Assembly: GCA_030637655.1 (NCBI GenBank)
Contig: DAOWGI010000011.1
Location: 1 to 64,000 of the forward strand
DNA length: 64,000 nucleotides
From: a candidate division FCPU426 bacterium
Lineage (GTDB): Bacteria; Oederibacteriota; JAAXVQ01; JAUVAV01
Direction: 5' to 3'
The notes beneath the pieces are model-generated. The model saw only the letters and a program-made list of their open reading frames with translations, ran no database searches and was not told the origin of the DNA. Each line of letters starts with the position of its first letter. Positions within the stretch are counted from its first letter, which is position 1. This document shows positions 25,601 through 55,040 of this stretch, in pieces. Position numbers and translations under genes: made by a program.

Positions 25601-28600
25601 CCGGGAAATTGGATTGAAAGCTGTTCCAGACAAGCGGGATAGGCTTTTTTATGCGCAGTTCGAAAAATATGGATTTGATCCCCTGGTCGTGGAGGTGGCG
25701 CTGGAGGCATATCTCTTCGGCCGGACAGAAAACGGCCGGCTGGAAAGTGAGTTGAAAAAGGAAATATTGGAAAAACCGGATGAACATAAGCATTTTAAGC
25801 TCAGCAAGACGATTGCCGCCGAATTGTCTTATGTGCAGGCGGCGGATTCGCCGCGAAAACAATTAGCATCCATAGCTGAACCCAGAGGGATTAAAGTCAT
25901 GAGTGAATTACTTGATCCCCAGGCAGCGGCATTGCCGGCAAATGGGGCTACTGGGCGTTTATGGGAAAAAGATTATGGAGATGATCTGTATATCGGGCAG
26001 ACAAATAAAACAGGCGGTATACACTTGTTTGGCAAGGTGGCCATTTCACCTGTCAGAAAACATGAACCTGGCTGGGATGTCTTTCTGCGCAAAGCCAAAT
26101 GTATTAATGATCATGTTATTGAAGTGAGTTTTTTGGCAAAAAAGGATGAAGAAGAAATCACCCATAGCTTTCAGATAGATACCAAGCGCGTTAATAAAAG
26201 CACCGGGGCTTTGGAAATGGAATACCGGTTGGGATTGCAGTATGTGGCGGATCTTTTAACGGGGCCGGGAAATGCCGGTTGGGAAACCTATTTGGAGTCT
26301 CTGCCGGATTTGAAGGGTGTCTCTTTGGGAATCCTTAATATTCGCAAGTTAAGCGTGAATGTGCGGGGGGAAATCTTTCATTGGCATCTTATTGGTGAGA
26401 GGGAATCAGGCTGGGAGGCCCGCCTGCAAGGCTGCAAATATGTGCGCGGAGCACCGCGCTTGACAGTGCTTTTTAAAAAAGGGGATCGGATAAAAATCAG
26501 GCATTTTAGAATCGATGGATGGCGTGAAAAGGAAAAATGTTTTGATATTAAAGTCGCGGTTGAACAGCAATATTATTACGGTGTTTTATTAAACCAGCGG
26601 GTCGCAGACTATCTTTTTTCAGATGAGCGGGATGTACATTCGGAAATGAGCAAGAGCATATCAGCCTTGCAGGAACAGCGGGCGGCGATTCTGGCAGGGG
26701 AAATTGATCCGCGTAAGCTATTAATCAGCCAGGGTTGTGATCTGTTAGTGGCAGAGTTGGCATTACAGGCCTGGAAAAAAAACCGGGTCCAGCGTAATCG
26801 AATTCCCATTTATAGAATTTTTGCCAACCAGGTTAAAGGAACTGCTAAAAAAGTCCTAAAACTTACTTATAAAAAGATGGCGGAAGTTTATTACAAAAAA
26901 ACCAACCAGTCTGATACCGCCGAGCTTGTTGCCATCTCTCTGCCTGAAGGTGTTGATAAGCTGCTTGAATTGCTTAAGCCGAAAGAGGCAAAAAAAAGGA
27001 TTAGGCAGAGTTTGCGATCCGGTGGAACCCGGAAACTCGATGATTATAAAAATATTTATTTGGGTCAAACAGGTCCGGAAGGAGAAATTTTTCTTAAAAA
27101 GGGCCATACCTTTTCCGCTTTAGGTAAAGGGGACGCAGGTTGGGATACTTACATCACAGAGGCCCGCGTGCAAAATAATCACGTAATTACTTTAGAAGTG
27201 CGCCTGGAGAAGCAGGGGCAAATACGCCGGCATACCTTTCAAATTGACACCCAGCGGTTTAATAAGCGGATCCAGGCCTTGGAAATACTCCCGCAACTGG
27301 GTTTGGACTATATCATGGACATGTTGTCACAAACAAGTTGTGCCGTTTTGAATAAATATTTGCGCGGCATGCCTGAACTTGAAGGTTTGCTTATTGGTGA
27401 CTCGATCACCCAGAGAGTTGAACGAGCTTACGGCGATACAAAATTTAGATGGTCACTGATTGGGGAGAAGAGTCCGGATTGGAAAGTAACATTGAATTCC
27501 GTGCTGCCGGGAAGCAGACCGCGTTTGCAGATCAAGTGTGAAAAAGCAGGGCGAACCAAGATTCGGACCTTTGAAATCACAGATAAATATCCAGGTAGCG
27601 AACTGCTTAATATTAGCTTGGTGGAGGAAAAGCAATATTATTATGGAGTGTATCTGAGCAAGAGCATAGTTGAGTATCTATTGAATAAAAATAGCGCGAT
27701 TTTATCGCAAGTGGATGCGTGCTTGCGCGCTATTGAGGATAATCCGGTAAAATCAGAGCTTGCGTCTTTCCTCGCAGATCGGGGTTTTGATGAGGTGGCT
27801 ATACACTTGGCCGGACACCGGGCTCAGATGGGAGAAACCGGCGCTGTGATGTTGGAGGAGCCTGTTGAGTTGGAGGAAGCGCTGATAACCGCGCAAAAGC
27901 AGAACCTAAAATTGGCAAAATACAGAGACGCAACAGCTTATTATCAAAGACAGACCCTTCCGGGTGCCGGACGAAGTAAAAGACTGCTTGCCATAACAAG
28001 CTTGTCCAGCAAGCTCTGGGATCTGCTTGACTTAAGAACAGCTCAAGCTGCAATTGACAAGCATCTTACTGACAGTGAGCCCCGCTTAATCCCGGAATAT
28101 GAAAACACTTACATTGGCCGTACAGATGAGAATGGGAAAAATTGGTTTGATTCAGATACTCATTTATCATTGCTGGGGATTAGGGAAGAGAGATGGAAAG
28201 GCTATCTTGAAAACGCCCGGGTATGTAATGATCATGTCATTGAACTCAAGCTGAGATTTGAAAAACACGGGCAAACAGAGTATCGTGTTTTTCAAATAGA
28301 TACCCTGAAAATAAATAAACAAAATAAAAGGCTTGCTATTCACTATCGCTTAGGTTGGGACTATATTGCCGATATGCTGGCGGAATCCGCAGATGTTGAC
28401 TGGAGCGATTACTTTCAGAAACTTCGGCAGCTTGAGGATGTCAGTTTAGGCAGATTGCAGAGTCTAACCTTGGCGAAAAAGATTCACGGTGAAAATTATA
28501 TCTGGGCTCTGCTTGGCGGAACAGAAATTGGGTGGGATGCTCGGATTGTGCGCTGTGAGTTGGACGACAATGTGCCAAGTATATGGCTTGAGTTCAAAAA

Positions 28601-31600
28601 AGGGAATCGGGTAAAATACAGGAATTTTAAAATAATCCGGAAAAATGAGGACGAGGCAACACATGCCATCCAGCTGGCCGGCGAAAAATATTTTTACCGG
28701 GGTATTGAGATATATAAACGTTTGATTCCCGAGGTTTATTTGGCCCATGACACCTTTGCTGAAAATGTAGAAAAAGCCATGGCCCAACTTGGAGAACTTT
28801 CTTCGGAACTTTTGACAATGACTCGGATTACGCAACTTCGAACTCAATTGGTTAAGCTGGGATATTCACCGCTGGTTGCTGCTGTTGCGGCGCAGGCTGC
28901 GCATTCTGTTATTGGTAAAGTCCATGAAAAAAAGACTTTTTCCGATTTTATCAGAAAGCCGGAAATAACCAAGAGACAAATTGTTGAGTATAACGGCTCA
29001 AAAATGGCGGAGCTTCAATATTCAATAACACGCGCGCCTGGCGGGGCGGAGCATTGTACTCTGGCTGCCATTTCCAGTTTATCCGGAGTGGATAAAATGC
29101 TTGAAATATTAGATCCCGAACATATGAGACAACTGCTCGCCAGTGGACGAAAAAACTTTTTGGAATATGCCAATACCTATATTGGCAAAAGCGATTCAAG
29201 CGGGCAGGTTTATCTGAAACATGGAGTAAACGCCCCCGGGCTTAGGACAATGGAAACGGATTGGGATGTATATGTGAATCGAGTCACAGCCCTAAATGAT
29301 CATATTTTCGAAGTGCAGATGCGGTTGGAAAAAGACGGCAAAAAAATCTATCGGCCTTATCAATTTGATGTGCTTCGAATTAATAAAAGTACAGGTACTT
29401 TAAGAAGATATACACGTTTAGGTTGGGAATATATAACCGATATGCTGTCTCAACCGGAAAATATTGATTGGCAAAGCTATTTGCAAGCACGAACGGATAT
29501 TATAGGCCTTAGGTTGAGTAATTTGAATTGCAATATTTTACTTAAGTTGATTCGTGGTGTCCTATACTCTTGGCAGGTGTTGCCGGAATCTTATGAGACC
29601 GGGTGGGAAGGAAAAATTATTGCTTGTGAGCTTGGTCCCCATGGTCCAAGGCTGGGGATAGAATTAACCAAAGGCGCCAGACGCATAGTGCGCAGGTTTG
29701 AAGTTACTCCGCGCCATATCGAAGGCGGCTTCTTTGGATTGCGTTTTATGGATGAAAAGCAGTATTACCATAATGTATATCTGAATTCACATGTTGCTGA
29801 TACTATTTTTTCCTCAACCCGGGATATACGTAAACAGTTGGAATCCTGCTTAACGGCTATGAATACCGCAATGCAGAAAACAGCCGGTCCAGTACTTGAA
29901 CGGAGCGATATTTGGAGGAAGTTGATTAAAAAAGGATTTGCGGAATATGTAATTGCCTTTGCCTGGCATGTTCGCCGGTTGCGTAAAAATCCAGGGTTGG
30001 AAATAAGTGCTAATAAAGTCGTGCGAAAAGTCCCGGTATCCCTCCCCGGCCGCTGTATGGCTGAATTGCGTTATTCCCTAAGATCGAAGGAGACCCCGCT
30101 TGCGCAAGGCGGCCTGATCTCCCTGACCACAGCCACGGGCTTGGATAAATTGGGCAATCTGATTAATTACAAGAAGGCCAAAAAACTCATAGCCCGAAAC
30201 ACACCCAATGGCCGGCCGGTTGTTTTGCCAGGCTACGAGAATCATTATCTGGGTAAAACGGAAGAAGACGGTGCTATTTACCATGGATCGCAGTATCAGG
30301 CTTCACTGCTCGGGAGCGTGGAAGCCGGCTGGGATGTTTATCTTGATGGTGCGCAGGTGGTAAATAATCATGTGATTGAGATAAAAATCCGATCGGAAAA
30401 GGATGGCGGGATAAGATATCGTACGTATCAGATTGACTTGTATAAGAGAAATAAAATGACAGGTAATTTGGAGATTCATTACCGGCTGGGCTGGGAGTAT
30501 ATTGCTGATATGCTGATACAATCACAGCATGTGGATTGGGAAGATTATTTTGAAACTGCGCCCGAACTTCACCGGTTATCCTTCGGTATATACGCAGGCA
30601 ATGCTATCATTCGTCAAGTCAACGGCAAGATTTTTCAATGGACGCATAGCGGTCAACAAGGTCAGGGCATGGAAGGTAAAATCCTGGTTTGTGAAACAAG
30701 GAACAATGAACCCCATTTTTGGGTTGAATTCAAGGATGATAAACGCAGCATGATTCGGGAGTTTAGGATAGCCGATTATGACACGAAAAACAATAGATTC
30801 AATATTTTGCTGGTTAATCAAGAGCATCGCTATTTTGGGCAGCCCGTATCCGTCGCAGTTGATGCTTGTCTGGCGGCGATTAATAAAATAAGAGCCAATG
30901 CGCGGAAGACTGCCAGGCGGCTTTCCTCTGCGCGGTTATGGGAAATGCTACTGGGTCGAAATTTTAAACCGGAAGTGGTGGAACAAGCAGTGCGGTTGCA
31001 TAGGGTGGCCAGAAAAAGCCCGGTTGATTCAGCTGCCAGGGCCGCCGGGCTTGGCTTTTCCGCCCGCAGGGTTTTGATGGAGCTGCCGGAGCCGCAACAG
31101 AAACTGGTGTTGGAGCTCATGCGTTCGCAGTGGATTGACATAAAAGCTTTTTGTGGGACCCTGGATGCCATTCCCTTAATAAAGCGCACACCTGAAGCAT
31201 TTGTCCGAATTCTCGCAAAGCATATCAGTAAGGAGGAGGGAGTTGAATTTTTTACGCCTTATGAGCAAAAACAAATGCAAAATATAAGTGTTTCGCGTTT
31301 ATGCGAAAATGCTTGGGTTTGGGAGTATGTGAACAGCTTAGCGGCAAGCGGATATAAAATCACAGGTTCGACACTGAGAATAATAATTAATAATAGAAAA
31401 ACATCCCGAAAATATTTAAAAAAATATGTAAAACTAATGAGAAAATATAATATCAGCCAAACTGATTTTGCAAAATGTTATAGTTCGGCGCGTCCCTGGG
31501 AAGAGATAAAAGAAATACTGCCTCTTTTAAGCGCAACGGAATTAATTTCCACAAATATTGCGATTATCTTAAGCAGCGCTTTAACAAAAAAAGAGATCAG

Positions 31601-34600
31601 GACCCACCTGGATTTGTTTGTTGATATTGATAAAAAAACACTCCGCGCAAATATCCAGCAGATTATCCATGATCGCAGAAAAACACAATTGCATCAAATT
31701 ATTAGTGATTTTACTAAAGCCGGAATGTTATCTGGACAACAAAGCAATGATATACAAACAGCTATTGAGAGAAAGTCACACTTGTTATCAACGGATTTTG
31801 CCCGGGATATTTTTGCCGCGCTTCAGTACCAGGGGGAACCTTGGTTTGAGACTCAGAAAATAGAAGACTCGCAGAAGTTGCTTGGCATTGATAAACTTTG
31901 GCAAAAACGTGCCTGGCTGATCAAGGTTCACGCGCTTGCTGAAGAAAAGCGGCAAGACGGCATATCACTGGATATTATTTTAAAAGTACTTTATTCACCA
32001 CTAAGCATGAAAGCCATTGAAAAAATATTGGCTCAGCACGGACCGGAATCTATTGAAAGACTCCTGGACAAATATTTGTATGCTGATCATAGCAGCGGGG
32101 TTGAAAAACAAGAGCTTATAAGATTGCTGGAAAAAAACAGTATTCGGGATACTGTTCAAGTAATGGCGATTAATTCATACCGAAACACAAGCCGTATCAT
32201 TCGCATTCTGGGGTATCTTGAAAATATTCCTGCCAATATATTGGATAAAAGTATCTCTGCCAGTAGGTTAGATGATATAAAAACAGCTATTTTTACTAAG
32301 TGCCTGCGTCGAACCGCGGAATTGTCTGATCTGGTGGACTATCTACCCAAACACAATGGTTCTGATAGTGATGAGCAGTATCATGGGCGTTTACTTGGTG
32401 TTATCCAAGATACCTTTTCCAAGAACAAACTGAGCGAAATGAGAAGAGTATTACAATTATTAGTGCGTTTTCGCGGAAAATTACCAGTTTTGACGGAGAA
32501 TGCCGCCCAAAAAGCACGAGAATACATTAAATTACGCCGAATTTTACGCCAGCTTGATCCGGACCAATTGTTTGGATTGCTGGATATTATAATGGGGGAT
32601 AAGCTTTCGGCCGGTGAGATTGCCCAACTAAAACGGAATATTATTAGTATGATGCAAAAGGATAGAGAGCAATGGGAAACCATCAAACCTGAGTTTCAAA
32701 AAATTCTAATCGATAGGAATCGAGAAGGGTCAAAAGACATTCAGCTGTTGGCAGGTCAATTGCTGCTTTCCTTTGATTCAGAGGTTCGCCGGGATATTGA
32801 AGATACCGTAATCAATGTCTTCGTACCTAGGATATTTATTAAGTATAAGCAGCCGGAATATGTTGAGACTGCTGTTAATACATTAGCTAGGACGTTGAGA
32901 AGGTATGATGTGTATAAAGGTTTGTTGGAGGGGGCGGAAACTGCTCGGTTGACAAGTTTTATATATCGGAATCAGATGTTCGTGGGAAAGGAAGCCAGTC
33001 GTGTGCGATATGCTGATGTATTTAGGGCACAGGCTGAAATAATCGCAAAGGCCGAAGAGAAAGATGTGTATCTTTCAGAAACAGAAATATTTGAATTTTT
33101 AGCAATACAATTTAGTTCACCTAGACTGCAAAGTTTTAAAGAATATTTAATTGAACTTAAAAGTGAAAAAACAGAACCATTGACCAAAGTCAATGCGGAT
33201 GGCTATGAATATGAGTGTGGGGGTATCCTTGATAAGGGTACCCTGGATATGGCATCAGATTATATGCGTAGTATTTATAACTTTACACATCCGTTGACAG
33301 ATACGGATGTGGATGATCCGGATGCCATCGGAGGATACATGCCCTGGCTCAAAGCATTATTAGTTGAGCGCTGGGGCCGGCTGAGCGCGGATACATATAA
33401 TCGCTGGGCCTGGGCCATTGAAGCTGTGCCCATGGGTCTGGGCGGACTGCCGGCTGTGAGTATCGCGATTTGGACCGGCTATCATGACCCGCTCTCCCTC
33501 GCGCTCCTATTCATTCAAGCCGGCTGGGGCGCATTTTTTCTGGAACACCTTTTCCCCAAAACCGCGGCAGGTTGGAAAGCCTTGATATCTGGAAATGTTA
33601 AAAAAGCCTACCAAGATTTCAGCCGGGAAGATTGGATCAAGGTGGGCATTGCCTTTGGCTTGGCTGCGTTCAATCTCTTGCTCACTTTGGCCGCACCGGG
33701 TTTGTGGGCCGGAATCGTAGTGCTGGTAATTATCGGTTTGGGATCGCATGCCTTGACCAACCGGATATTGAAAACAAAACAAACGCCGGAGCCTATTGAA
33801 GTTGTACAGGAAGTAACAACCGAAATTCCTGATCGTCAGATCAATCGTTCGCTTTTGGAAACCAGACCTGTGATGTTTAAATTAATTCAATTTTTAATGA
33901 CACCGCGTTTGCAACTCAGACCCTGGTTGAGACCCTTGCGCCTGTTTGGCGGTGTTGTCTTAGGGTTGGTAAAAGTCGCGGGATACCTGTATCTTTCAAT
34001 ACGCAACCTGAGAGCAAAATCAGGCGCAGATACTGCAACCATTTCGCAAGTTCGGAAATACCAACTGGTGCTGCCGGACGCAATTTCTGCCCGACAGCTC
34101 AATCCTGAACATATTCGCATTCAAACGCGGGGAAGTGCGTTTGGATCTTATAGATATGAAAACGGAAAGCTCGACATCTTTGTTCCGCAAGTGTTGGTTA
34201 ATCAACAAAACGCCGGAAAACTGGACCGCTTTCTCTTTGATATCGCGGTTTGGACCCAGGCTATGCGTTGCCATAATGAGATTTGGCAAGAAATAGATCC
34301 GGCCTTGCCCACGCTGCAAACCACAGTACGTTATCAGCAGCTGCCGCAAAGAATTTTAAAGAACATACTCAGATTCTCAAGGGCGCTGCCTGTGGGCCTG
34401 ACCCGGGGCTGGCATGGCTTCTGGTTAAAACGCCATCCAGTGCAATATCTGCAAGCACAATTAATGCAAGCGACTGTTCAGTCGGATATGGCCGAACAAC
34501 TTGTTACCTCCGGCAGCACCTTGCGGCAAGACTATATCCGTTTCAGCCAACAACCGGATAAAACCAATGCCGGGTATTTTATGGAAAGCGTAATTGATCG

Positions 34601-34934
34601 TCTTCAATTGCAACGAGAATACATACAAAGCTTGCTCATGGAAAATAAATTATCCGAAGCCGAATATCAAAAAGAACAGCTCGTGCAATCCGTCAATACA
34701 ATCAATTCACTCATGCGAACCATGCAAATCCTGCAAGGCCGTCCCATTGGGAAGAAGCTTGACAATATTCAAGCTACTCCCTTTGGCGAGCAGCGTTTGT
34801 GGATATCGCCGCTCTTGCGCAGTTCGCAACTGGGCGCCTATCTGGATGTGCTGGATTTCCTGGGTCTTAAAGTGGATCGGAAAGACCTCTGGCAATGGCG
34901 TAAACCCGCACGCACCAATGCCAATGCAGCATAA
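22644..34934 (+). CDS. Giant (4096 aa) multidomain protein: N-terminal signal/TM and conserved N-domain, six ~356-aa tandem repeats, helical region, TM segment
   Basis: Uninterrupted 12.3-kb ORF; N-terminal hydrophobic segment; IQDLHCNYEVQKNIA..LLAVEGA..VTGGYH N-domain; repeats visible in the translation; hydrophobic helices at ~33400-33760. Confidence 0.9.
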   Translation: MSHISIKQWHHPSRCIWVKTISLLVILTFIFPYLTWALEVQNYSGMHTILFNQRLLEIPKKFGTTKHAWQHGEKMVVHIQDLHCNYEVQKNIAGIIHELARKHNLRLLAVEGASLPINTTKLRSFPIKKVRDDVSDYFVRQGKLSGAEYYAITSEFPMALEGIETAELYALNKRSVEFILTDEGQGYCLDLRDNLNIFKPQIYSSTLLAFDKKRVAYREGRVSALKYCRGLRKYAKKLKLDLNPFPNFIAYSQSHDAVFPLQIEADDLFQEIDRLDQIIREYFYTNKIQRDLDAQLKRLDIIEKLLSISVSPEELAVFRQERQAFQVQTFVDFIWQQNTEDDVEIDPEVFVLDGYLDAAVDFYRVADQRSEQLAKNTLARLQKHNTKIAVLVTGGYHTEHVLAALEAQGVSYISIKPKITEQDVVNPYFSLLRNRQTPLEKLLSQNQKVFTLEPLLPKMADPNKIPDEATDLDERERTFSRLADLILTAMTAMYHFLRNKLGAGLARRVQEAMADYPDLLVTGKIKIHPNQTISFWVQAPGGQEMLVVCTPGNRSLPIIEAEALQVAEFKQEKLVFVGQGKAAAVRAKLDAVPAGLWAEMNLREIDALYPARSILFVLVTWLDRCKQLIAEWQTRIHAIGAELKDWPGKYLPQMGVVQIEGTDIFLPDVQWPPWLASMMEKADTYMRNAEMKPEGLAGKYSDKSLPLKRDAEINHLTGKTGREKLQELLLAKNKQKLYAKVSGNPDKHLFRSTESTVGQYIGDTDVNGAVTIRAGKKFPALGSKGAGWKVYLKKIRILNDQVMEFDIRLEKNGATKIRRFQIDMLLVNEKTGFFEIHDRLALHCVIEMIQQAEDVDWPAFMEKKPDLRGLTFGELKKGKVNVRANGKDFALHLSGENEDGWENHIVDYGYEQDTPFIEVKLTRGPRVKFRRFAIRGRRQREQVFDIQLVAERQYLHGIYLDKNVCRQLFSKNRNLEAEVQACSEYIREIGLKAVPDKRDRLFYAQFEKYGFDPLVVEVALEAYLFGRTENGRLESELKKEILEKPDEHKHFKLSKTIAAELSYVQAADSPRKQLASIAEPRGIKVMSELLDPQAAALPANGATGRLWEKDYGDDLYIGQTNKTGGIHLFGKVAISPVRKHEPGWDVFLRKAKCINDHVIEVSFLAKKDEEEITHSFQIDTKRVNKSTGALEMEYRLGLQYVADLLTGPGNAGWETYLESLPDLKGVSLGILNIRKLSVNVRGEIFHWHLIGERESGWEARLQGCKYVRGAPRLTVLFKKGDRIKIRHFRIDGWREKEKCFDIKVAVEQQYYYGVLLNQRVADYLFSDERDVHSEMSKSISALQEQRAAILAGEIDPRKLLISQGCDLLVAELALQAWKKNRVQRNRIPIYRIFANQVKGTAKKVLKLTYKKMAEVYYKKTNQSDTAELVAISLPEGVDKLLELLKPKEAKKRIRQSLRSGGTRKLDDYKNIYLGQTGPEGEIFLKKGHTFSALGKGDAGWDTYITEARVQNNHVITLEVRLEKQGQIRRHTFQIDTQRFNKRIQALEILPQLGLDYIMDMLSQTSCAVLNKYLRGMPELEGLLIGDSITQRVERAYGDTKFRWSLIGEKSPDWKVTLNSVLPGSRPRLQIKCEKAGRTKIRTFEITDKYPGSELLNISLVEEKQYYYGVYLSKSIVEYLLNKNSAILSQVDACLRAIEDNPVKSELASFLADRGFDEVAIHLAGHRAQMGETGAVMLEEPVELEEALITAQKQNLKLAKYRDATAYYQRQTLPGAGRSKRLLAITSLSSKLWDLLDLRTAQAAIDKHLTDSEPRLIPEYENTYIGRTDENGKNWFDSDTHLSLLGIREERWKGYLENARVCNDHVIELKLRFEKHGQTEYRVFQIDTLKINKQNKRLAIHYRLGWDYIADMLAESADVDWSDYFQKLRQLEDVSLGRLQSLTLAKKIHGENYIWALLGGTEIGWDARIVRCELDDNVPSIWLEFKKGNRVKYRNFKIIRKNEDEATHAIQLAGEKYFYRGIEIYKRLIPEVYLAHDTFAENVEKAMAQLGELSSELLTMTRITQLRTQLVKLGYSPLVAAVAAQAAHSVIGKVHEKKTFSDFIRKPEITKRQIVEYNGSKMAELQYSITRAPGGAEHCTLAAISSLSGVDKMLEILDPEHMRQLLASGRKNFLEYANTYIGKSDSSGQVYLKHGVNAPGLRTMETDWDVYVNRVTALNDHIFEVQMRLEKDGKKIYRPYQFDVLRINKSTGTLRRYTRLGWEYITDMLSQPENIDWQSYLQARTDIIGLRLSNLNCNILLKLIRGVLYSWQVLPESYETGWEGKIIACELGPHGPRLGIELTKGARRIVRRFEVTPRHIEGGFFGLRFMDEKQYYHNVYLNSHVADTIFSSTRDIRKQLESCLTAMNTAMQKTAGPVLERSDIWRKLIKKGFAEYVIAFAWHVRRLRKNPGLEISANKVVRKVPVSLPGRCMAELRYSLRSKETPLAQGGLISLTTATGLDKLGNLINYKKAKKLIARNTPNGRPVVLPGYENHYLGKTEEDGAIYHGSQYQASLLGSVEAGWDVYLDGAQVVNNHVIEIKIRSEKDGGIRYRTYQIDLYKRNKMTGNLEIHYRLGWEYIADMLIQSQHVDWEDYFETAPELHRLSFGIYAGNAIIRQVNGKIFQWTHSGQQGQGMEGKILVCETRNNEPHFWVEFKDDKRSMIREFRIADYDTKNNRFNILLVNQEHRYFGQPVSVAVDACLAAINKIRANARKTARRLSSARLWEMLLGRNFKPEVVEQAVRLHRVARKSPVDSAARAAGLGFSARRVLMELPEPQQKLVLELMRSQWIDIKAFCGTLDAIPLIKRTPEAFVRILAKHISKEEGVEFFTPYEQKQMQNISVSRLCENAWVWEYVNSLAASGYKITGSTLRIIINNRKTSRKYLKKYVKLMRKYNISQTDFAKCYSSARPWEEIKEILPLLSATELISTNIAIILSSALTKKEIRTHLDLFVDIDKKTLRANIQQIIHDRRKTQLHQIISDFTKAGMLSGQQSNDIQTAIERKSHLLSTDFARDIFAALQYQGEPWFETQKIEDSQKLLGIDKLWQKRAWLIKVHALAEEKRQDGISLDIILKVLYSPLSMKAIEKILAQHGPESIERLLDKYLYADHSSGVEKQELIRLLEKNSIRDTVQVMAINSYRNTSRIIRILGYLENIPANILDKSISASRLDDIKTAIFTKCLRRTAELSDLVDYLPKHNGSDSDEQYHGRLLGVIQDTFSKNKLSEMRRVLQLLVRFRGKLPVLTENAAQKAREYIKLRRILRQLDPDQLFGLLDIIMGDKLSAGEIAQLKRNIISMMQKDREQWETIKPEFQKILIDRNREGSKDIQLLAGQLLLSFDSEVRRDIEDTVINVFVPRIFIKYKQPEYVETAVNTLARTLRRYDVYKGLLEGAETARLTSFIYRNQMFVGKEASRVRYADVFRAQAEIIAKAEEKDVYLSETEIFEFLAIQFSSPRLQSFKEYLIELKSEKTEPLTKVNADGYEYECGGILDKGTLDMASDYMRSIYNFTHPLTDTDVDDPDAIGGYMPWLKALLVERWGRLSADTYNRWAWAIEAVPMGLGGLPAVSIAIWTGYHDPLSLALLFIQAGWGAFFLEHLFPKTAAGWKALISGNVKKAYQDFSREDWIKVGIAFGLAAFNLLLTLAAPGLWAGIVVLVIIGLGSHALTNRILKTKQTPEPIEVVQEVTTEIPDRQINRSLLETRPVMFKLIQFLMTPRLQLRPWLRPLRLFGGVVLGLVKVAGYLYLSIRNLRAKSGADTATISQVRKYQLVLPDAISARQLNPEHIRIQTRGSAFGSYRYENGKLDIFVPQVLVNQQNAGKLDRFLFDIAVWTQAMRCHNEIWQEIDPALPTLQTTVRYQQLPQRILKNILRFSRALPVGLTRGWHGFWLKRHPVQYLQAQLMQATVQSDMAEQLVTSGSTLRQDYIRFSQQPDKTNAGYFMESVIDRLQLQREYIQSLLMENKLSEAEYQKEQLVQSVNTINSLMRTMQILQGRPIGKKLDNIQATPFGEQRLWISPLLRSSQLGAYLDVLDFLGLKVDRKDLWQWRKPARTNANAA

Positions 34935-47433: not shown

Positions 47434-47538
47434 GGGGGACGTTGTTCGGTAATACGGTTATCTTTATTTGATGATTCTTTGGATTTTTTCATAAATATTA
47501 GTGGTTTTGGATAACCGTATTACCGAACAACGTCCCCC
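47434..47538. mobile_element. Tn3-like miniature inverted-repeat element (TIME/MITE), 105 bp
   Basis: Perfect 29-bp terminal IR GGGGGACGTTGTTCGGTAATACGGTTATC, flanked by the 5-bp direct repeat GTTAA. Confidence 0.85.
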
Positions 47539-47568: not shown

Positions 47569-49152
47569 ATGGTTGATCAAATACATATTTATTATGAAGT
47601 GACCTGCGCGCGTGGCAGCCATATCGAGCAAATCAGTCATGCCATTGCTCTGGAACAGACAGTGGAAGTGCCGGATGATTGTATACATTCTGATTTTGTT
47701 CGCGAGCATATTGTCGGCCAGGTGTTGGAAATCTCACCGCTGGAAAAAAAAGACAATACCTATCTGGTGGTGATTGGGTATGCGCCGGATATTACTGCCT
47801 ATCAGATTCCGCAGTTCCTCAATCTTTTTTTCGGGAATATTTCTCTAAAAAATTATATCCGTATCGTGAATGTTACTTTGCCGGAGTGTTTTCTGGAACA
47901 GTTCAGCGGTCCGAATTACGGTATTTCCGGGATTCGCAAAATACTTGGGGTCTATGACCGTCCTTTGGCGGCCACAGCCTTAAAACCCATGGGCAGCACG
48001 CCTGAAACATTGGCGAACATGGCTGAAGCTTTTGCCTTGGGTGGCGGTGATATCATTAAAGATGATCACGGACTGACGGATCATTCATTTTGTCCGTTTG
48101 AAAAGCGTGTCCGCTTGTGTCAGGAAGCAATACAACGTGTGAACCTGAAGACCGGGCGCCAGACGCTATATTTTCCAAATGTGCTGGGAAGCGCTGAACA
48201 ACTGGGAAAACAGGTTGAGTTTGCCGTCAAACAGGGCGTGCGCGGGGTGTTGATCTCTCCCTTTTTGGTTGGTCCGGATATACTCCGGCATTTGTCAGCG
48301 CAGCACAAAATACTGTTCATGGCACATCCGGCTTTTACCGGCACTCACTTCCATGATCCTCAGCATGGTATTATTCCGGCAGTTTTGTTGGGAACCTTGT
48401 TTCGTTTGTTAGGAGCGGATATTTCGGTTTATCCCAACAGCGGAGGACGATTTGGATTTAGTGTGGATGAGTGTTTGGGAATCAGTGAGGCTTTGCAAAA
48501 ACCATTGGGAAAGATGAAACCTGCTTTTCCCGGTCCGGCCGGCGGCATGCAGTTGAATTCCATAGAAATCATGGCAAAGCAGTATGGCGTAGAAGCGATT
48601 TACATTATTGGCGGTGCTTTGTTGCAACATTCGCGTGATTTGCAGCAGAGCACGCGTATTTTTATGCAAAAGATACGATCTTTGTTTAAGGAACGATTGA
48701 CTACCCCTGTTTATGAAATGATTTCAGCAGGTGACTGGGGAGGTGGATCTGCCGGGCAAGATCGTCGATCCCACTTGGCCTGGCAATCCGATTTTACCTG
48801 GACCGGTCGTGCCGCAGAAGCGTACAAAGCAGAGAGTGGGTTGGCCTTTGCTAAGATCCGACGGCAGGAATTGATAGGCAAGCATGGGGAGAAAACCGGT
48901 TTTGATCTGCGCTATTTCCAAATTGAGCCACAGGGATTTTCCAGTCTGGAAAAGCACAGGCACGAACATGTGATTATTGCTGTGCGCGGGCAGGGTGTGC
49001 TGCAGTTGGGCAAGCGGCAAATTTTACTCAAACCTCACGATATTGCGTATGTGGAACCAGACCTAGTTCATCAGATCCGGAATGAGTCCGCAGAACCGTT
49101 TGGTTTCTTCTGTATAGTTGATCATGAACGGGACAAGCCAATAGCGCCCTAG
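47569..49152 (+). CDS. RuBisCO-like protein (form IV, KDDH type) fused to a C-terminal cupin
   Basis: IALEQTVE, FGNISL, ALKPMG, GGGDIIKDDHGL, MAHPAF, PAGGM, then cupin RYFQIEPQGFSSLEKHRHEHVI..HQIRN..EPFGFFCIVDHERD. Confidence 0.9.
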   Translation: MVDQIHIYYEVTCARGSHIEQISHAIALEQTVEVPDDCIHSDFVREHIVGQVLEISPLEKKDNTYLVVIGYAPDITAYQIPQFLNLFFGNISLKNYIRIVNVTLPECFLEQFSGPNYGISGIRKILGVYDRPLAATALKPMGSTPETLANMAEAFALGGGDIIKDDHGLTDHSFCPFEKRVRLCQEAIQRVNLKTGRQTLYFPNVLGSAEQLGKQVEFAVKQGVRGVLISPFLVGPDILRHLSAQHKILFMAHPAFTGTHFHDPQHGIIPAVLLGTLFRLLGADISVYPNSGGRFGFSVDECLGISEALQKPLGKMKPAFPGPAGGMQLNSIEIMAKQYGVEAIYIIGGALLQHSRDLQQSTRIFMQKIRSLFKERLTTPVYEMISAGDWGGGSAGQDRRSHLAWQSDFTWTGRAAEAYKAESGLAFAKIRRQELIGKHGEKTGFDLRYFQIEPQGFSSLEKHRHEHVIIAVRGQGVLQLGKRQILLKPHDIAYVEPDLVHQIRNESAEPFGFFCIVDHERDKPIAP

Positions 49153-49365: not shown

Positions 49366-49592
49366 GTAACATATCAGTGGAGCGAGAAAGACATATGGTC
49401 TGCTAATTTATTTTTTTCCAGGGACGCGACTTGCCTCCGTATGTGCAAATTCAAAATTGCCGATCAGCTAAGTTATTTAGAATTTCGTATCCGGCTTGGT
49501 AAGAGCGCGCTTTCCCCTTGGGAAAAAATAAATTAGCAGACCATATGTTTCCGGGTTATTTGACAAAACACAGCACTTCACTGACCTGTTAC
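49366..49592. mobile_element. Nested MITE: outer element with 8-bp TSD containing an inner IR element (49391-49548)
   Basis: GCCGTGAA direct repeats at 49358-49365 and 49593-49600; outer imperfect IR GTAACAnnTCAGTG; inner 26-bp perfect IR ACATATGGTCTGCTAATTTATTTTTT. Confidence 0.8.
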
Positions 49593-49758: not shown

Positions 49759-52284
49759 ATGGGGTGCTATAAAAAAACAAGTAACATTTTCCGGTTTAGT
49801 ATCTTTACAGTTTTATTGGCGGTTTTAGGGAGCGGGTTAATTGTTTCCAGTTATGCAGAAACCCCGCTGGCGGATAATTCGTCCAGCCAGGTGAGGATTG
49901 CCTGGGATGAATTCAAAAAAATGCTAAAAATCGAGACTGATGAAATTAAATTAAGCTGGGATGAATTTAAAAAACTTTTAGCCCAAACCGGAAGTGAAGT
50001 CAAGGTGGAGTACAATATCCAGGATGGAATGGTGGTACTTGCGCGGGCACAGTTCAAACAATTACTGGATAAAATGAAACCGCTTGCAGTAACAGCAATT
50101 CAGCCTCCCAGAGATTATCTTATCACCAAAGCCGGCTATACAGGCAAGATGAGTAAGGAAAGCACAACTTTTACGGCCCGCTTGTATTTAGAAATATTTA
50201 AGCAAGAACGAAAGAACTATTCTAAGATCCCTCTCCTGCCCCAAGATATAGCCTTGCGCAAGATCAAATTGGATAATGCCTCAGCCTTGGTCATGAATGA
50301 AAGCGGTTGGTATGTGCTCACAACCGATAAAATCGGGCAACATGTCGTCGATTTGGAATTCTCGGTTAAATCAAATATCGCTAAAGGCCCGGAAGTACTT
50401 AATTTTAAAATCCCGCAAACTGCGATTACATTATTGAGGCTGGATATACCCCTGAAGCGGGTAAAAGTAGAGATTCCGCAAGCCAAGCATATGGTCATAT
50501 CCAGGAGCGCCAACCGCACCCAAATAGAGTCAGTGCTTTCAACGACCAACCATATTGAGGTTAAATTGCATCGTGCCTTGGTAGTAAAGAAAAAACGCGG
50601 ACCGGCTAAAATCTATGCCGAAACCATGAACCTGCTCTCGATTGAAGATGATGCCTTGCGCGTGAGCACAAAGTTGAAACTGAATATTCTGCAAAATGCT
50701 GTTTCTCAGATAGAGTTGTTTGTGCCGGCAGGCTACAGTGTGCTCTATGTAAAAGACCAAAATTGGCAAGAGATCAGGGATTGGAGTACCCGGAAGGTAA
50801 AGCAACGCGAGGTGCTAACTCTGCCATTTGCAGGCGAAAAGGAAGGAACAGTTATCGTTACCATTGTATCTGAAAAGATATTTTCCGATACAACCAGTGA
50901 GCTGGAATTCGATGGATTTCAGGTTTTAAAAGCGATCAGGGAAACCGGTTATATAGGGGCTGAAAAAAAGAGTACGGCTGAAGCGGAGATTATTAAAGTG
51001 GATAATACTGATAGAGTGGATATCCAGGAATTGCCTTACGATCTGGTCGATATGTCCGCCAAGCCGCTTATTTTTGGATTGCGTTATTTGCGGCATCCTT
51101 TCCACTTGAAGTTGAAGATCACCAAACACGAGGAACTGCCTACTGTCAACACGGTGATAGATAATGCCAGCGTGATGTCGGTCTTGTTGGAAGAGGGTAA
51201 GGTGATAACCCGGGTTATCTATACTATACGAAATACCTGGAAGCAGTTTCTGGAGCTTAAACTGCCTGAAGACGCTGAGATATGGAGCCTTTATGTGAAT
51301 GGGAAACGGGAACTTCCGGCCAGGAATAAGGAAGGAAAATTCATGTTACCCCTGGTGCGCTCGAAAATCGAGGGAGAAAAGATTGTGCCTTTTGACATAG
51401 AGCTTCTCTATTATGCCAAGAACAGTAAATTTGCCAGGTTAGGCTCAAAACGATTGCCGTTTCCAACTGCGGATATAGTGGTAAGTAAAATGCTATGGTC
51501 TTGTTATTTTCCGGTTGATTATCAATTTATTTATTTTGGCGGCGCGATGGAAAAAGAAAAGATTGCTACTGGTATTCGTCCGCTGTTGGGCCGGAAACGG
51601 GTATTCACTTATAAAGATGTTAATGGATATAACCAGGTATTGGAAAGCTGGAACAGGCCAACGAAAAGCAGCAGAGTGAGTGGGAAAATGAAAAGGCTGC
51701 AAAACGCGTTGCAAAGTGAGTTTAGATCAAATGTGCAAAGAGATGAGGCGGTGTATTTAAATCAACTTAAACAAGAGATTGATTTTGCGCGGAATATCAG
51801 GGCAGAACAAGAGCAAGGTGCCATTGCCAAAGGCGGGGGCGGAGTGGCGCTGCTTAAGATTGAAGTGCCGGCTTCGGGTCAGCTTTACCGGTTTGCCAAG
51901 ACCCTGATTGAAGGGGAAGATTTATATTTGGATTTTCAATATGTCAAGGGATGGATCAGCACCATGGTTGTGATTTTTCTTCTTCTCCTGGCCGCCTATA
52001 TTATTTACCGGCTGAGAACAGTGATCAAAAGTGGATATCTGCGAATAAAAGCGTGGCTCGCAGCGCACCGGGAGTTTTGGGATAAATTTAAATCGCCCGA
52101 AGCTTCGCGGCTGCTGCTGGTTTTCGGCGCTTTTGTTTTTTGGTTTATCTCCCGGTTTGTTTTTGTGGTCCTGGTTCTGCTTTTTCTCATTGCCTGGCTT
52201 AAACCCGAGTGGCTTTTTCGGTCCCGGGCGAAGACGCCGGAACCGGCCAGGCTTTCTAAAAAAACATCGGCTTCACGAAAATAA
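49759..52284 (+). CDS. Large exported protein with C-terminal membrane anchor, unknown function (paralog A)
   Basis: Signal peptide, beta-rich body, C-terminal TM helices; colinear similarity to the next ORF. Confidence 0.8.
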   Translation: MGCYKKTSNIFRFSIFTVLLAVLGSGLIVSSYAETPLADNSSSQVRIAWDEFKKMLKIETDEIKLSWDEFKKLLAQTGSEVKVEYNIQDGMVVLARAQFKQLLDKMKPLAVTAIQPPRDYLITKAGYTGKMSKESTTFTARLYLEIFKQERKNYSKIPLLPQDIALRKIKLDNASALVMNESGWYVLTTDKIGQHVVDLEFSVKSNIAKGPEVLNFKIPQTAITLLRLDIPLKRVKVEIPQAKHMVISRSANRTQIESVLSTTNHIEVKLHRALVVKKKRGPAKIYAETMNLLSIEDDALRVSTKLKLNILQNAVSQIELFVPAGYSVLYVKDQNWQEIRDWSTRKVKQREVLTLPFAGEKEGTVIVTIVSEKIFSDTTSELEFDGFQVLKAIRETGYIGAEKKSTAEAEIIKVDNTDRVDIQELPYDLVDMSAKPLIFGLRYLRHPFHLKLKITKHEELPTVNTVIDNASVMSVLLEEGKVITRVIYTIRNTWKQFLELKLPEDAEIWSLYVNGKRELPARNKEGKFMLPLVRSKIEGEKIVPFDIELLYYAKNSKFARLGSKRLPFPTADIVVSKMLWSCYFPVDYQFIYFGGAMEKEKIATGIRPLLGRKRVFTYKDVNGYNQVLESWNRPTKSSRVSGKMKRLQNALQSEFRSNVQRDEAVYLNQLKQEIDFARNIRAEQEQGAIAKGGGGVALLKIEVPASGQLYRFAKTLIEGEDLYLDFQYVKGWISTMVVIFLLLLAAYIIYRLRTVIKSGYLRIKAWLAAHREFWDKFKSPEASRLLLVFGAFVFWFISRFVFVVLVLLFLIAWLKPEWLFRSRAKTPEPARLSKKTSASRK

Positions 52285-52307
52285 AATTCTTTTCTTACGA
52301 GGCTAAA

Positions 52308-55040
52308 ATGATGAAACCGCATAAGATAAAAAAATATATTCAGACCGGCTTAAGCTGTTTTGTCTTGTTAAGCATTTTTTGCAGCTCTCCTGTGCAGGCC
52401 GGCAATGATGTGGAAAAAAAGCGAGTAAGCAGCATAACTCTGGATTGGGAAGAATTCCGTTCGCTGCTGAGGCTGGATGCTGATGAGGTCAAACTTTCCT
52501 GGGATGAATTTAACCGGCTGATGTCGCAGACAGGTTGGCAGGTCAAACCTGAATATGAAGTTGAGGGTGGAGATGTCATTTTAACCCGCAAGCAATTCCA
52601 GAAGATACTGGATCAAATGCAACCACCCCGGAAAGCTGAGCTTGCCCCGCCGTGTGAGTATTTACTAATCCGGGGAAGTTATACGGGAAGAATGGGTAAA
52701 GAAAGCACCCAATTTGATGCTTTCCTGGACCTGGAAATTTTTAGAAAAGAAAAAAGAGCTTATTCCAAGATACCGCTGTTTCGCGAAGAATTGGCAATTG
52801 AAGATATCCGTTTTGATGAAAAGCCGGCCGCAATCATTACCGAAGGTGGATGGCATTATCTGAACACCGATAAAACGGGAAGATATTCTGTGCGGGTGAA
52901 ATTCTCAGTGAAATCAACCCTGGATAAAGGAACGCCCGGATTAAGTTTCAATATTCCGCAAACTCCCATAACTCACATTACTTTAGATATTCCTAAAGTC
53001 GGTATAGATGTAACCATTTCCTCGGCCCCGGCCGTGGAGATAACTGAAAAAAAAGGCCATACCATTGTCACAGGGGATTGCGTGCCGACAGCACAAATGT
53101 CTGTGGCCTGGAGAAAAAAACATGTGGAGCGGGCACGAGGCCCGGCTAAAATTTATGCCGAACTCTTCCACTTGCTTTCGATTGAGGCGGATGCGATCCG
53201 GGTGACTACCAAGCTGAATTTAAATATAGTCCAAAATAAGATCAACGCCATAACTTTAGCCATACCTGCCGGTTATCAGGTTTTGGAGGTCACGGGTCAG
53301 GGAAAAAGCATATGGAGCGTGCAGGAGGAAAAGGGCAAGGAATTTCTGAATATTCCTTTTGAATATCCCAGGGAAGGATATCACAATCTGACCATCAAGT
53401 CGGAAAAATTACTGCCCAAAGAGACCATGGTCGCGGATTTCACGGGTTTTGAAGTTCTGGAAGCCCAAAGGGAATCCGGGTTTGTGGCCGGTGAGGTTAA
53501 GAGCGATGCCGAGGCGCATGTGCAGGAGTTTAGGGGCGCTGATCGGGTTGATTTTCAGAAAATCCCGGTTTCATTGACAGAACTTTCATCCCGGCCTATC
53601 CTTTTCGCTTTCAAATATATCCGTCATCCGTATCAGGTAGTAGTAGATATTACCAAACATGAGAAAGAGGAGGTATTGAGCGCAATTATTGATCAGGCCC
53701 GCGGTACGACTCTTTTTCAGGCCGAAGGCAAATTGATCCATCAATTTACTTTTTCTATGCGAAATTTATGGAATCAATTTTTAAAGCTGGAATTACCCCA
53801 GGATTCCAGCATCTGGAGTGTCTATGTAGATGGGAAACGGGAGAAAGCCTCGCAAGATAAAGAGGGCAAAATATTGATTCCCCTGGCGCGTTCGCAAAGG
53901 GAAGGCCAAGAGAATCGTTTGCGGCCTTTTGAGGTGGAACTTATCTATACCCAACCCGCTGAAAAGTTCGCGATCCTGGGGAAGAAGCAACAGCACTTTC
54001 CTATGCCGAATGTTTTGATAAACACCCTGGAGTGGAATCTTTATGTGCCGGCGAATTATAAATATCTTCATTGGGGAGGGAATTTAAAGCGGGAAAAGAT
54101 ACCAACATTCCGCAAGCCTATCATACGGCAACTAAAGGATATGCTGCCAAGTTTAAGTATGTCGGGAAGGGCGCCAAAGGCAATTAGATATGACGAAATG
54201 GATGTTTATTGTGATGGGGATGACGGTGAAGAGGAAATGCCGGAAGAGGGAGAAATTTATGATGAAGAAATAGAAGTTGCGCGAAAGCAAGCCGCTATAG
54301 AACCACAGGCTGTTTATCCTGTCCAGGCGGCTCCAGATGATCCCGTGGGTCAAGCTGAGCAGCAAGCTGTTTCCCAGGGACTGGCGGGTTTACTATCAGT
54401 GCGCGTCAATATTCCTGTTTCCGGTAAAAACTACCGCTTCTCCAAAAAGATAGTGGAGAAGAACGAGCCTTTGCATTTGAGTTTTACCTATTTGGATGAA
54501 AGGATCATCCAGGCAGTTTTAATTCTCCTGGTTTTAGCGGTTCTCTATATTCTGTTTAAGCTAAGAAGAATTTTTGTCCCAGCGCTGAAGGTTTTAGGAG
54601 GGGTTATATCAAAACTATACTTTGGGATGAATAAATGTTTGCAACCCCGGTGGTCGCCCGTTGTTTTATTCATCCTTCTGAGTATCGCGGCTATACTCGG
54701 GGTATATATATATTATCCTCTGTTTTTCATAGGATTGCTGCTTCTCTTTTTCATATCCTTGGCCAGGCTCTTTGAGAGACAGTGTATACAGGTTATGAAA
54801 TTCTTCTGGCGGCCAATAATTTTGTTGTCCCTGCTTTTTATAATCCTGGCCGTTTTTGTTATTGACAAAATATTTTTTGAATTTCTATATTATTTTCCCT
54901 ATCGCCGATGGTTTGTTATTCTGCTTTTTGCAGTATTTGTTCTGTCATTTATAAGGTTGGTGATTAGCTTTTTTCGGGCCAAAAAAGAGAAAAAAGCGGC
55001 AAAAAAAGACGAAGCAGCAAAACCGGAAGTTAAGAAATAA
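52308..55040 (+). CDS. Large exported protein with multiple C-terminal TM helices, unknown function (paralog B)
   Basis: Signal peptide (..SPVQA); shares LSWDEF, RGPAKIYAE, HLLSIEADA, YIRHP, RNLWNQFLKL, IWSVYVDG and PVSGKNYRFSK motifs with paralog A. Confidence 0.8.
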   Translation: MMKPHKIKKYIQTGLSCFVLLSIFCSSPVQAGNDVEKKRVSSITLDWEEFRSLLRLDADEVKLSWDEFNRLMSQTGWQVKPEYEVEGGDVILTRKQFQKILDQMQPPRKAELAPPCEYLLIRGSYTGRMGKESTQFDAFLDLEIFRKEKRAYSKIPLFREELAIEDIRFDEKPAAIITEGGWHYLNTDKTGRYSVRVKFSVKSTLDKGTPGLSFNIPQTPITHITLDIPKVGIDVTISSAPAVEITEKKGHTIVTGDCVPTAQMSVAWRKKHVERARGPAKIYAELFHLLSIEADAIRVTTKLNLNIVQNKINAITLAIPAGYQVLEVTGQGKSIWSVQEEKGKEFLNIPFEYPREGYHNLTIKSEKLLPKETMVADFTGFEVLEAQRESGFVAGEVKSDAEAHVQEFRGADRVDFQKIPVSLTELSSRPILFAFKYIRHPYQVVVDITKHEKEEVLSAIIDQARGTTLFQAEGKLIHQFTFSMRNLWNQFLKLELPQDSSIWSVYVDGKREKASQDKEGKILIPLARSQREGQENRLRPFEVELIYTQPAEKFAILGKKQQHFPMPNVLINTLEWNLYVPANYKYLHWGGNLKREKIPTFRKPIIRQLKDMLPSLSMSGRAPKAIRYDEMDVYCDGDDGEEEMPEEGEIYDEEIEVARKQAAIEPQAVYPVQAAPDDPVGQAEQQAVSQGLAGLLSVRVNIPVSGKNYRFSKKIVEKNEPLHLSFTYLDERIIQAVLILLVLAVLYILFKLRRIFVPALKVLGGVISKLYFGMNKCLQPRWSPVVLFILLSIAAILGVYIYYPLFFIGLLLLFFISLARLFERQCIQVMKFFWRPIILLSLLFIILAVFVIDKIFFEFLYYFPYRRWFVILLFAVFVLSFIRLVISFFRAKKEKKAAKKDEAAKPEVKK

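Follow-up and report, generated by a model that had tools for sequence, protein, structure and literature searches.

In purple bacteria, methylthioadenosine (MTA) is recycled to an isoprenoid precursor with two enzymes that are separate proteins. The RuBisCO-like protein (RLP) of R. rubrum and RLP1 of R. palustris are demonstrated, dimeric MTRu-1P 1,3-isomerases with a kcat of ~1.2–1.3 per second (PMC5893883), and the R. rubrum cupin uses glutathione as the acceptor of the methylthio group (PMC4334135, PMC5893883). Descriptions of the chemistry and of the two enzyme families thus exist, and the RLP–cupin fusion that we report here is a widespread variant of this known pathway. We found no published description of such a fusion in the literature, an earlier mention in the primary shunt papers or their supplements being possible; the fusions named in a survey of RuBisCO are of form III-c only (PMC6389311).

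The window, that is, the whole stretch of 64,000 nucleotides from a candidate division FCPU426 bacterium that we analysed, carries homologs of both enzymes in one gene (47569..49152, + strand, as are all its features given below), which encodes a single chain of 527 aa with no internal stop. Residues 1–375 (47569..48693) make up a form IV RuBisCO-like domain of the KDDH/DeepYkr type, predicted to be a 5-methylthioribulose-1-P 1,3-isomerase, residues 376–400 (48694..48768) a flexible interdomain linker with an AlphaFold pLDDT below 50 at 384–396, and residues 401–527 (48769..49152) a cupin domain predicted to be a 1-methylthioxylulose-5-P methylsulfurylase. The first-pass annotation had already read this single ORF as an RLP–cupin fusion, and both Pfam domains indeed score above their cut-offs (RuBisCO_large at residues 118–284, 84.8 versus 30.1 bits; Cupin_2 at residues 449–516, 41.9 versus 27.2 bits), while the motifs that it named, KPMG, KDDH, WGGGSAG, WTGR..AYK, RYFQIEPQGFSSLEKHRHEH, and EPFGFFCIVDHERD, are all found in the translation.

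The fused gene is single-copy in the source assembly and stands isolated, with a DnaJ-domain gene on one side, two large unannotated genes on the other, and a short dispersed inverted-repeat element on either flank. These two MITE-like elements (window 47434–47538 and 49391–49548; inverted arms of 29 nt and 33 nt) have 6 and 27 near-full-length BLAST matches in the genome, the 27 including self-inverted matches. A promoter scan, with 4 sites against 5.6 expected, was uninformative. Window positions 49759–55040 hold a tandem pair of paralogous genes encoding 841 and 910 aa with a signal peptide and C-terminal membrane segments, for which no Pfam match was found. Three very large ORFs (window 22644–34931, 4096 aa; G000:C95:3–9248, 3082 aa; G000:C52:7941–16190, 2750 aa) have N-termini that look alike and are signal-peptide-like.

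The fusion is genuine and frequent among uncultured bacteria. Single contigs cross the RLP–cupin junction without a gap in four of four runs from three studies of cold-seep metagenomes; runs X1 and X2, which come from one study that is possibly the source of the assembly, are identical to the window, and the remaining two runs differ from it at 12 and 46 places. A homolog search, which bears on the RuBisCO_large plus cupin architecture asked for in the first-pass annotation, found both Pfam domains in 120/120 matches listed (48–80% identity, 95–100% cover), these being part of 1439 hits among 8000 candidates scored, and the hosts named among the matches listed are FCPU426, Nitrospirota, Scalindua, Planctomycetota, Fibrobacterota, and Chloroflexota. 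In the genome collection the two domains are fused in 29 of 32 loci. Within the phylum (99 genomes), the full-length fusion is restricted to the source genome and five of the ten others of its family; the records of its relatives bear the names FCPU426, Firestonebacteria, and Goldiibacteriota. No gene neighbourhood is shared across phyla among 62 RLP loci (the first 30 with 1.5-kb flanks only), and sharing is confined to the level of lineage synteny.

The best PDB match of the RLP domain is the R. palustris RLP 3QFW (251.5 bits), followed by an MtnW (161.5 bits), and in Foldseek the domain aligns with 3QFW at a TM of 0.93 and an rmsd of 1.9 Å; the AlphaFold model of the fused protein has a mean pLDDT of 93 and a pTM of 0.77. 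We read 3QFW as RLP1 because RLP2 has an entry of its own, 2QYG. Instead of the KPKLG loop and KDDE of carboxylating RuBisCO, the domain contains KPMG (residues 139–142; 47983..47994), with K139 invariant in 120/120 matches listed, and KDDH (residues 164–167; 48058..48069), with K164, D165, D166, and H167 equally invariant in 120/120 and KDDH also present in 3QFW. In its closest solved structure and KDDH it thus has the two marks of a DeepYkr isomerase. Scores against the models for carboxylating RuBisCO (forms I–III; 142 and 134 bits versus cut-offs of 438 and 497), for MtnW (NCBIfam; 218 versus 409 bits), and for the other MtnW/OiaX-class NCBIfam equivalogs (173 versus 514 and 80 versus 700 bits) all lie below the cut-offs. 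The nearest homolog (P0002, 80% identity) bears the automatic JGI label "S-methyl-5-thioribulose 1-phosphate isomerase". The use of KDDH as a marker of function, as made in the first-pass annotation, does not hold, since RLPs linked to transketolase genes carry KDDH too, so that this motif is necessary but not sufficient for a DeepYkr isomerase; at ~40% identity, these RLPs match the query as strongly as 3QFW does.

Phylogeny was addressed with two trees, both hand-picked subsets of 88 locus domains and 240 database proteins, in which L100 (324 bits to 3QFW) serves as a proxy for the RLPs from R. rubrum and from R. palustris, themselves absent from the trees. In a quick tree of 77 rows, the fused RLPs and three unfused RLPs from a sister family form one clade (SH-aLRT 99), which is sister to stand-alone alphaproteobacterial RLPs of the RLP-plus-cupin group (SH-aLRT 93). 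In a careful tree of 33 rows, three RLP groups stay apart, the single long outgroup falls inside the fused group, and the sister placement is not recovered. A sub-clade of the fusions (L050, L066–L068, L074–L098) has KDDQ or KDDN instead of KDDH. Further RLP-type matches lie in frames of 886 and 975 aa (G003:C219:1545–2732 and G039:C51:6276–7235) and are possibly different RLP fusions.

The cupin domain finds its best structures in 3IBM (107 bits), 3JZV (Rru_A2000 of R. rubrum; 82.3 bits), and 3KGZ (59.2 bits), with other cupins at or below 33 bits. Its motif E461-x-H463-x-H465-x-H467 (48949..48969) aligns with 3JZV, Cys515 (49111..49113) aligns with the GFLC cysteine of Rru_A2000, and these five residues together with H501 are invariant in 120/120 matches listed. 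The domain therefore combines Rru_A2000 homology, a His/Glu site, and a cysteine, as a methylsulfurylase should. E461, H463, H465, H467, and H501 form the probable metal site, such His and Glu residues presumably being metal ligands throughout the family, and Cys515 is the probable methylthio acceptor, a role that Warlick et al. are said to have shown in 2012 for the GFLC cysteine, reportedly catalytic in Rru_A2000. The cupin domain is probably a dimer: a two-copy model of residues 372–527 of P0002 scored 0.79 against 0.01 for the best control, with a score mark attained by 21/30 solved homodimers but by 0/23 monomers, and the contacts of its runs coincide to at least 96%, at a pLDDT of at least 79; we take this model as likeness only, because it resembles solved cupins.

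Fused cupins group together in a quick tree of 47 rows (SH-aLRT 96). Related stand-alone cupins lie directly upstream of a metY-like gene (O-acetylhomoserine sulfhydrylase) in three of three loci fetched, where an R. rubrum-like cupin is followed by the metY-like gene in sulfur-assimilation clusters (L121:1103–2902, L122:4353–6303, L123:3473–5306). In genome G049, which has such a cupin–metY locus, the RLP that matches best falls into the transketolase-linked group; this hints that transketolase-linked RLPs may also feed the cupin. A Terrarubrum plasmid carries a stand-alone RLP beside a cupin of the Rru_A2000 group. For the sister family with unfused RLPs, we rejected the idea that its split RLP and cupin are the two halves of the fusion, as this cupin groups with the R. 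rubrum-like ones that lie beside metY; the split RLP nests among the fused RLPs in the quick tree.

The Gly-rich linker remarked on early in the analysis, WGGGSAG, is present but peculiar to the window's copy, and the family has an S-x-C-[ED] motif in its place. The site reads S-A-G-D here (48724..48735), with Gly388 encoded by GGT, a codon that shows no differences in X1 and X2 and is not among the differences listed for the other two runs. Of the 120 matches listed, 109 have Cys in this column and 99 have [ST]-x-C-[ED]; of 41 representatives with less than 60% identity, 35 keep the Cys, and the top-residue fractions of the other columns from 381 to 402 are 0.12–0.47. P0002 reads SACD. Because the same motif occurs at the N-terminus of two stand-alone cupins (12 hits, 9 read), and is missing from the end of the sister family's unfused RLPs, it looks like an arm of the cupin; the two stand-alone cupins are sister to the fused-cupin clade with weak support. 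The motif is missing from Magnetobacterium, Vicinamibacteria, several relatives, and the window's copy, most of which also lack GshB.

GshB had no match in the source genome or five relatives and exceeded its cut-off in 2 of 34 fusion carriers, both Gammaproteobacteria, the thiol-pathway searches having covered GshB. With GshB in so few carriers, the thiol acceptor is probably not the glutathione of R. rubrum, and the methylthio release that the first-pass annotation had modelled on R. rubrum needs qualifying, the release step probably differing in a lineage without GshB. No correlation between the linker Cys and GshB could be demonstrated, with counter-examples in both directions; Cys388 is absent from the confident contacts of the P0002 dimer model, and none of the models places the linker Cys near an active site. 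Nor is there support for the substrate channelling originally envisaged, because the linker between the two well-folded domains is predicted to be disordered. It is plausible that a tethered linker Cys acts as a relay or resolving thiol. A bolder and rather doubtful proposal is that the fused family represents a glutathione-independent MTA–isoprenoid shunt in which the S-x-C-[ED] Cys, on its flexible arm, is a built-in swinging thiol. This Cys would take the methylthio group from Cys515, or resolve it to methanethiol and a disulfide for thioredoxin, and the window's protein, having no such Cys, would represent a natural variant that relies on a free thiol. If true, anaerobes that lack glutathione (Nitrospirota, Planctomycetota, anammox bacteria, FCPU426, and KSB1) would make methanethiol and DXP in this way.

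The source genome, which is 91.55% complete, contains speD-speE, Dxr, IspG, and an OAH/OAS sulfhydrylase (637 bits versus a cut-off of 495), and hence genes of the downstream MEP pathway as well as the O-acetylhomoserine sulfhydrylase that goes with the shunt. A class II aldolase had no match in the genome at this completeness, so that no MtnB or Ald2 would compete for the substrate. The observation that mtnP and mtnA are absent from the window was borne out by family searches of the source genome. The wider search for mtnP, mtnA, and MEP genes, likewise suggested at the outset, was successful for Dxr and IspG; for the upstream steps it yielded an MTAP-family phosphorylase (MtnP) match of 81 bits, below the cut-off of 275, and a degenerate mtnA only. 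Of 34 carriers, 12 have MTAP above the cut-off; of six genomes in the family of the source genome, none does. The sole nucleoside phosphorylase in the assembly is of the trimeric PNP-I type (G000:C52:5383–6204; L006:1432–2253), in a family without MTAP, and has Asp and Ile at the positions of bovine Asn243 and His257, as does the PNP of a relative. Since Asp and Ile at these sites presumably suit 6-amino, 5'-modified (5'-deoxy) nucleosides, this enzyme is a candidate for the MTA step, that is, a candidate MTA or 5'-deoxyadenosine phosphorylase.

The only MtnA match in the assembly (G000:C52:6222–7262; L007:1498–2538) is a degenerate paralog without the RGAP, CN, and RPT motifs, which we take to be catalytic, and may act as an eIF-2B-type sensor without catalysing a reaction. 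Two mtnA-like genes, the second lower-scoring, are present in ten of ten family relatives, and this second gene follows proC and a PNP gene in the source genome and in G026. As to mtnA above the cut-off, 32 of 34 fusion carriers have it; it discriminates little, because the phylum has it in 92 of 99 genomes, irrespective of the fusion. At L066, mtnA is found 2.2 kb upstream of the fused ORF.

We conclude that the fused protein is probably a bifunctional single-chain core of the MTA–isoprenoid shunt. From sequence we infer its substrates and activities, the phosphorylase used, and the thiol acceptor, and the strongest functional argument for the shunt is that both halves appear, independently of each other, to match two consecutive enzymes of one pathway. 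MTA from spermidine synthesis would be phosphorolysed and then converted by MtnA to 5-methylthioribulose-1-P, which the RLP domain, as a dimer like those of R. rubrum and R. palustris, would isomerise to 1-methylthioxylulose-5-P. The tethered metal-cupin would then remove the methylthio group via Cys515 to give DXP for the MEP pathway, with a thiol other than glutathione accepting the group, and MetY may bring methanethiol back to methionine. The fusion would ensure co-expression and proximity of two otherwise independent domains, any sign of a tunnel being absent. Of the shunt candidate as first annotated, the homology of both halves stands, whereas KDDH as a diagnostic, channelling, and R. 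rubrum-type release are not supported.

Several observations speak against the shunt. KDDH-bearing RLPs beside transketolases score as well against the query as 3QFW, the sister relation to the alphaproteobacterial RLP-plus-cupin group appears only in the quick tree, MTAP is patchy among carriers (12/34, and 0/6 in the family), the assembly holds only a degenerate MtnA, and the gene neighbourhood is not shared beyond lineage synteny. One might instead suppose that in vivo the chief substrate is 5'-deoxyadenosine produced by radical-SAM enzymes. The RLP, for which the use of a 5-deoxy substrate has reportedly been observed, would then yield DXP directly from 5-deoxyribulose-1-P, leaving the cupin with a secondary role or with occasional use of MTA. 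The PNP-I-type enzyme, with its Asp and Ile, presumably fits 6-amino, 5'-deoxy substrates, GshB is mostly missing in carriers, and the MTA phosphorylase of R. rubrum takes 5'-deoxyadenosine as well as MTA (PMC4958253). We nevertheless regard this route as unlikely: it has no need of the His, Glu, and Cys residues of the cupin that are invariant in 120/120 matches listed, and speD-speE provide a source of MTA. Still less probable, in our estimation, is a shift of the fused pair to another sugar-phosphate or thioether substrate, as KDDH RLPs with split transketolases may have undergone. The identity to the characterised group is only ~35–42%, fused RLPs and fused cupins each form a group of their own, a KDDQ/KDDN sub-clade exists, and linked pathway genes are absent, all of which would suit such a shift; both domains, however, independently indicate the same two consecutive enzymes, and on a plasmid of Brucella anthropi, mtnK and mtnA accompany the transketolase-linked RLP. 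Because these two genes are in its cluster, transketolase-linked RLPs, too, seem to be fed by MtnA products.

Apart from the existence of split forms in the sister family, nothing suggests that the fusion is an assembly or read-through artefact, a worry already voiced in the first-pass annotation; given the contigs that cross the junction in every run and the fused forms in all matches listed and nearly all genome loci, we consider this hardly credible. It would also be very surprising if the fusion were the only DXP source here, in place of Dxs. No dxs above the cut-off was found in the source assembly, even though Dxr and IspG are present. However, all ten other genomes of the family, including five with the fusion, have dxs above the cut-off. 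In five relatives, dxs and the better-scoring mtnA are 20–31 kb apart, and in two they are part of a ~38-kb syntenic block of dxs, ispH, cmk, aroA, trpS, scpAB, ruvABC, and canonical mtnA (names assigned by sequence and gene order), for which no orthologs were found in the source assembly. Because the whole block is absent, the missing dxs and canonical mtnA are best explained by an assembly gap. Among 29 fusion carriers elsewhere, dxs exceeds the cut-off in 25, is split over two contigs in one, and is missing from three. We therefore rejected the replacement of Dxs by the fusion in the source genome, and among carriers at large the fusion does not as a rule stand in for Dxs.

A different situation exists in one order of Vicinamibacteria (G127, G128, and G131–G183), where all 55 genomes lack dxs (at E 1e-80) and 54 have Dxr. 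A fusion of the KDDQ/KDDN type occurs in 25 of the 55, two of which are single-chromosome records that also have IspG. Even here the notion that loss of Dxs tracks the fusion was rejected, the fusion being found in only 25 genomes and dxs in none, although the fusion may be a real DXP source in part of the order. Because the other 30 genomes are without both Dxs and the fusion, another Dxs bypass is likely. The KDDQ/KDDN fusions of Vicinamibacteria often have tsaD and a gene for an OPT-like transporter as neighbours (both named by sequence). A previous study lists Luteitalea pratensis as without Dxs and shunt enzymes and reports five Dxs-less genomes with both shunt enzymes (PMC10663253), and this order adds to the "missing Dxs" problem (PMC10663253).

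The fusion also offers a probable function for the unexplained "form IV RuBisCO" of magnetotactic Nitrospirota and Scalindua, which the respective papers note as being of unknown or sulfur-related function, with no mention of a cupin in the passages concerned (PMC10278575, PMC3655542). More broadly, it would extend oxygen-independent methionine salvage and methanethiol production from a handful of purple bacteria into several sediment-dwelling phyla. As most carriers lack GshB, the thiol acceptor becomes a testable question, for which the family supplies natural variants with and without the conserved linker cysteine. A one-gene MTA-to-DXP module could serve isoprenoid engineering.

Compared with Rru_A1998 of R. 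rubrum and RLP1 of R. palustris, the fused RLP is alike in fold (TM 0.93), in KP-x-G and KDDH, and in the AHPA, GGRF, and PAGG segments; it differs in being only ~35% identical, in forming its own group in the trees, in its C-terminal cupin, and in that the fused gene is not in an operon with mtnP or mtnA. The cupin has the W-x-G...YK, RYF, LE-x-H-x-H-x-H, HQ-x-R, and GF-x-C-x-V...RD-x-P motifs in common with Rru_A2000 (3JZV) and its homologs 3IBM and 3KGZ, and a dimer is predicted by likeness; the window's cupin is fused and does not have the C-terminal extension seen in the R. rubrum-like group, and the fused family has the N-terminal S-x-C-[ED] arm. R. rubrum uses glutathione (PMC4334135), whereas hosts of the fusion are mostly without GshB. 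Transketolase-linked RLPs share KDDH and 36–40% identity with the fused RLP but are stand-alone proteins of a separate clade (98/98), encoded beside a split transketolase instead of a cupin. Such loci (L017–L037, and L099, where mtnK-mtnA are also found) include the mtnK-mtnA-tktA-tktB-RLP arrangement on B. anthropi pOANT04, with similar RLPs in many genomes of the phylum, and the split-transketolase route is likely a second fate of the isomerised sugar phosphate. MtnW, the DK-MTP-1P enolase of the YkrW clade, resembles the fused RLP in fold and in a methionine-salvage role; it needs MtnB, for which the source genome has no match, and the query reaches only 218 of the 409 bits of the MtnW cut-off. 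Finally, the MtnBD and MtnAK proteins of Tetrahymena likewise fuse consecutive enzymes of methionine salvage (PMC6302742); they unite other enzymes in an oxygen-dependent pathway and are a precedent only. The RLP–cupin protein joins, on one chain, homologs of two enzymes that are separate proteins in purple bacteria.
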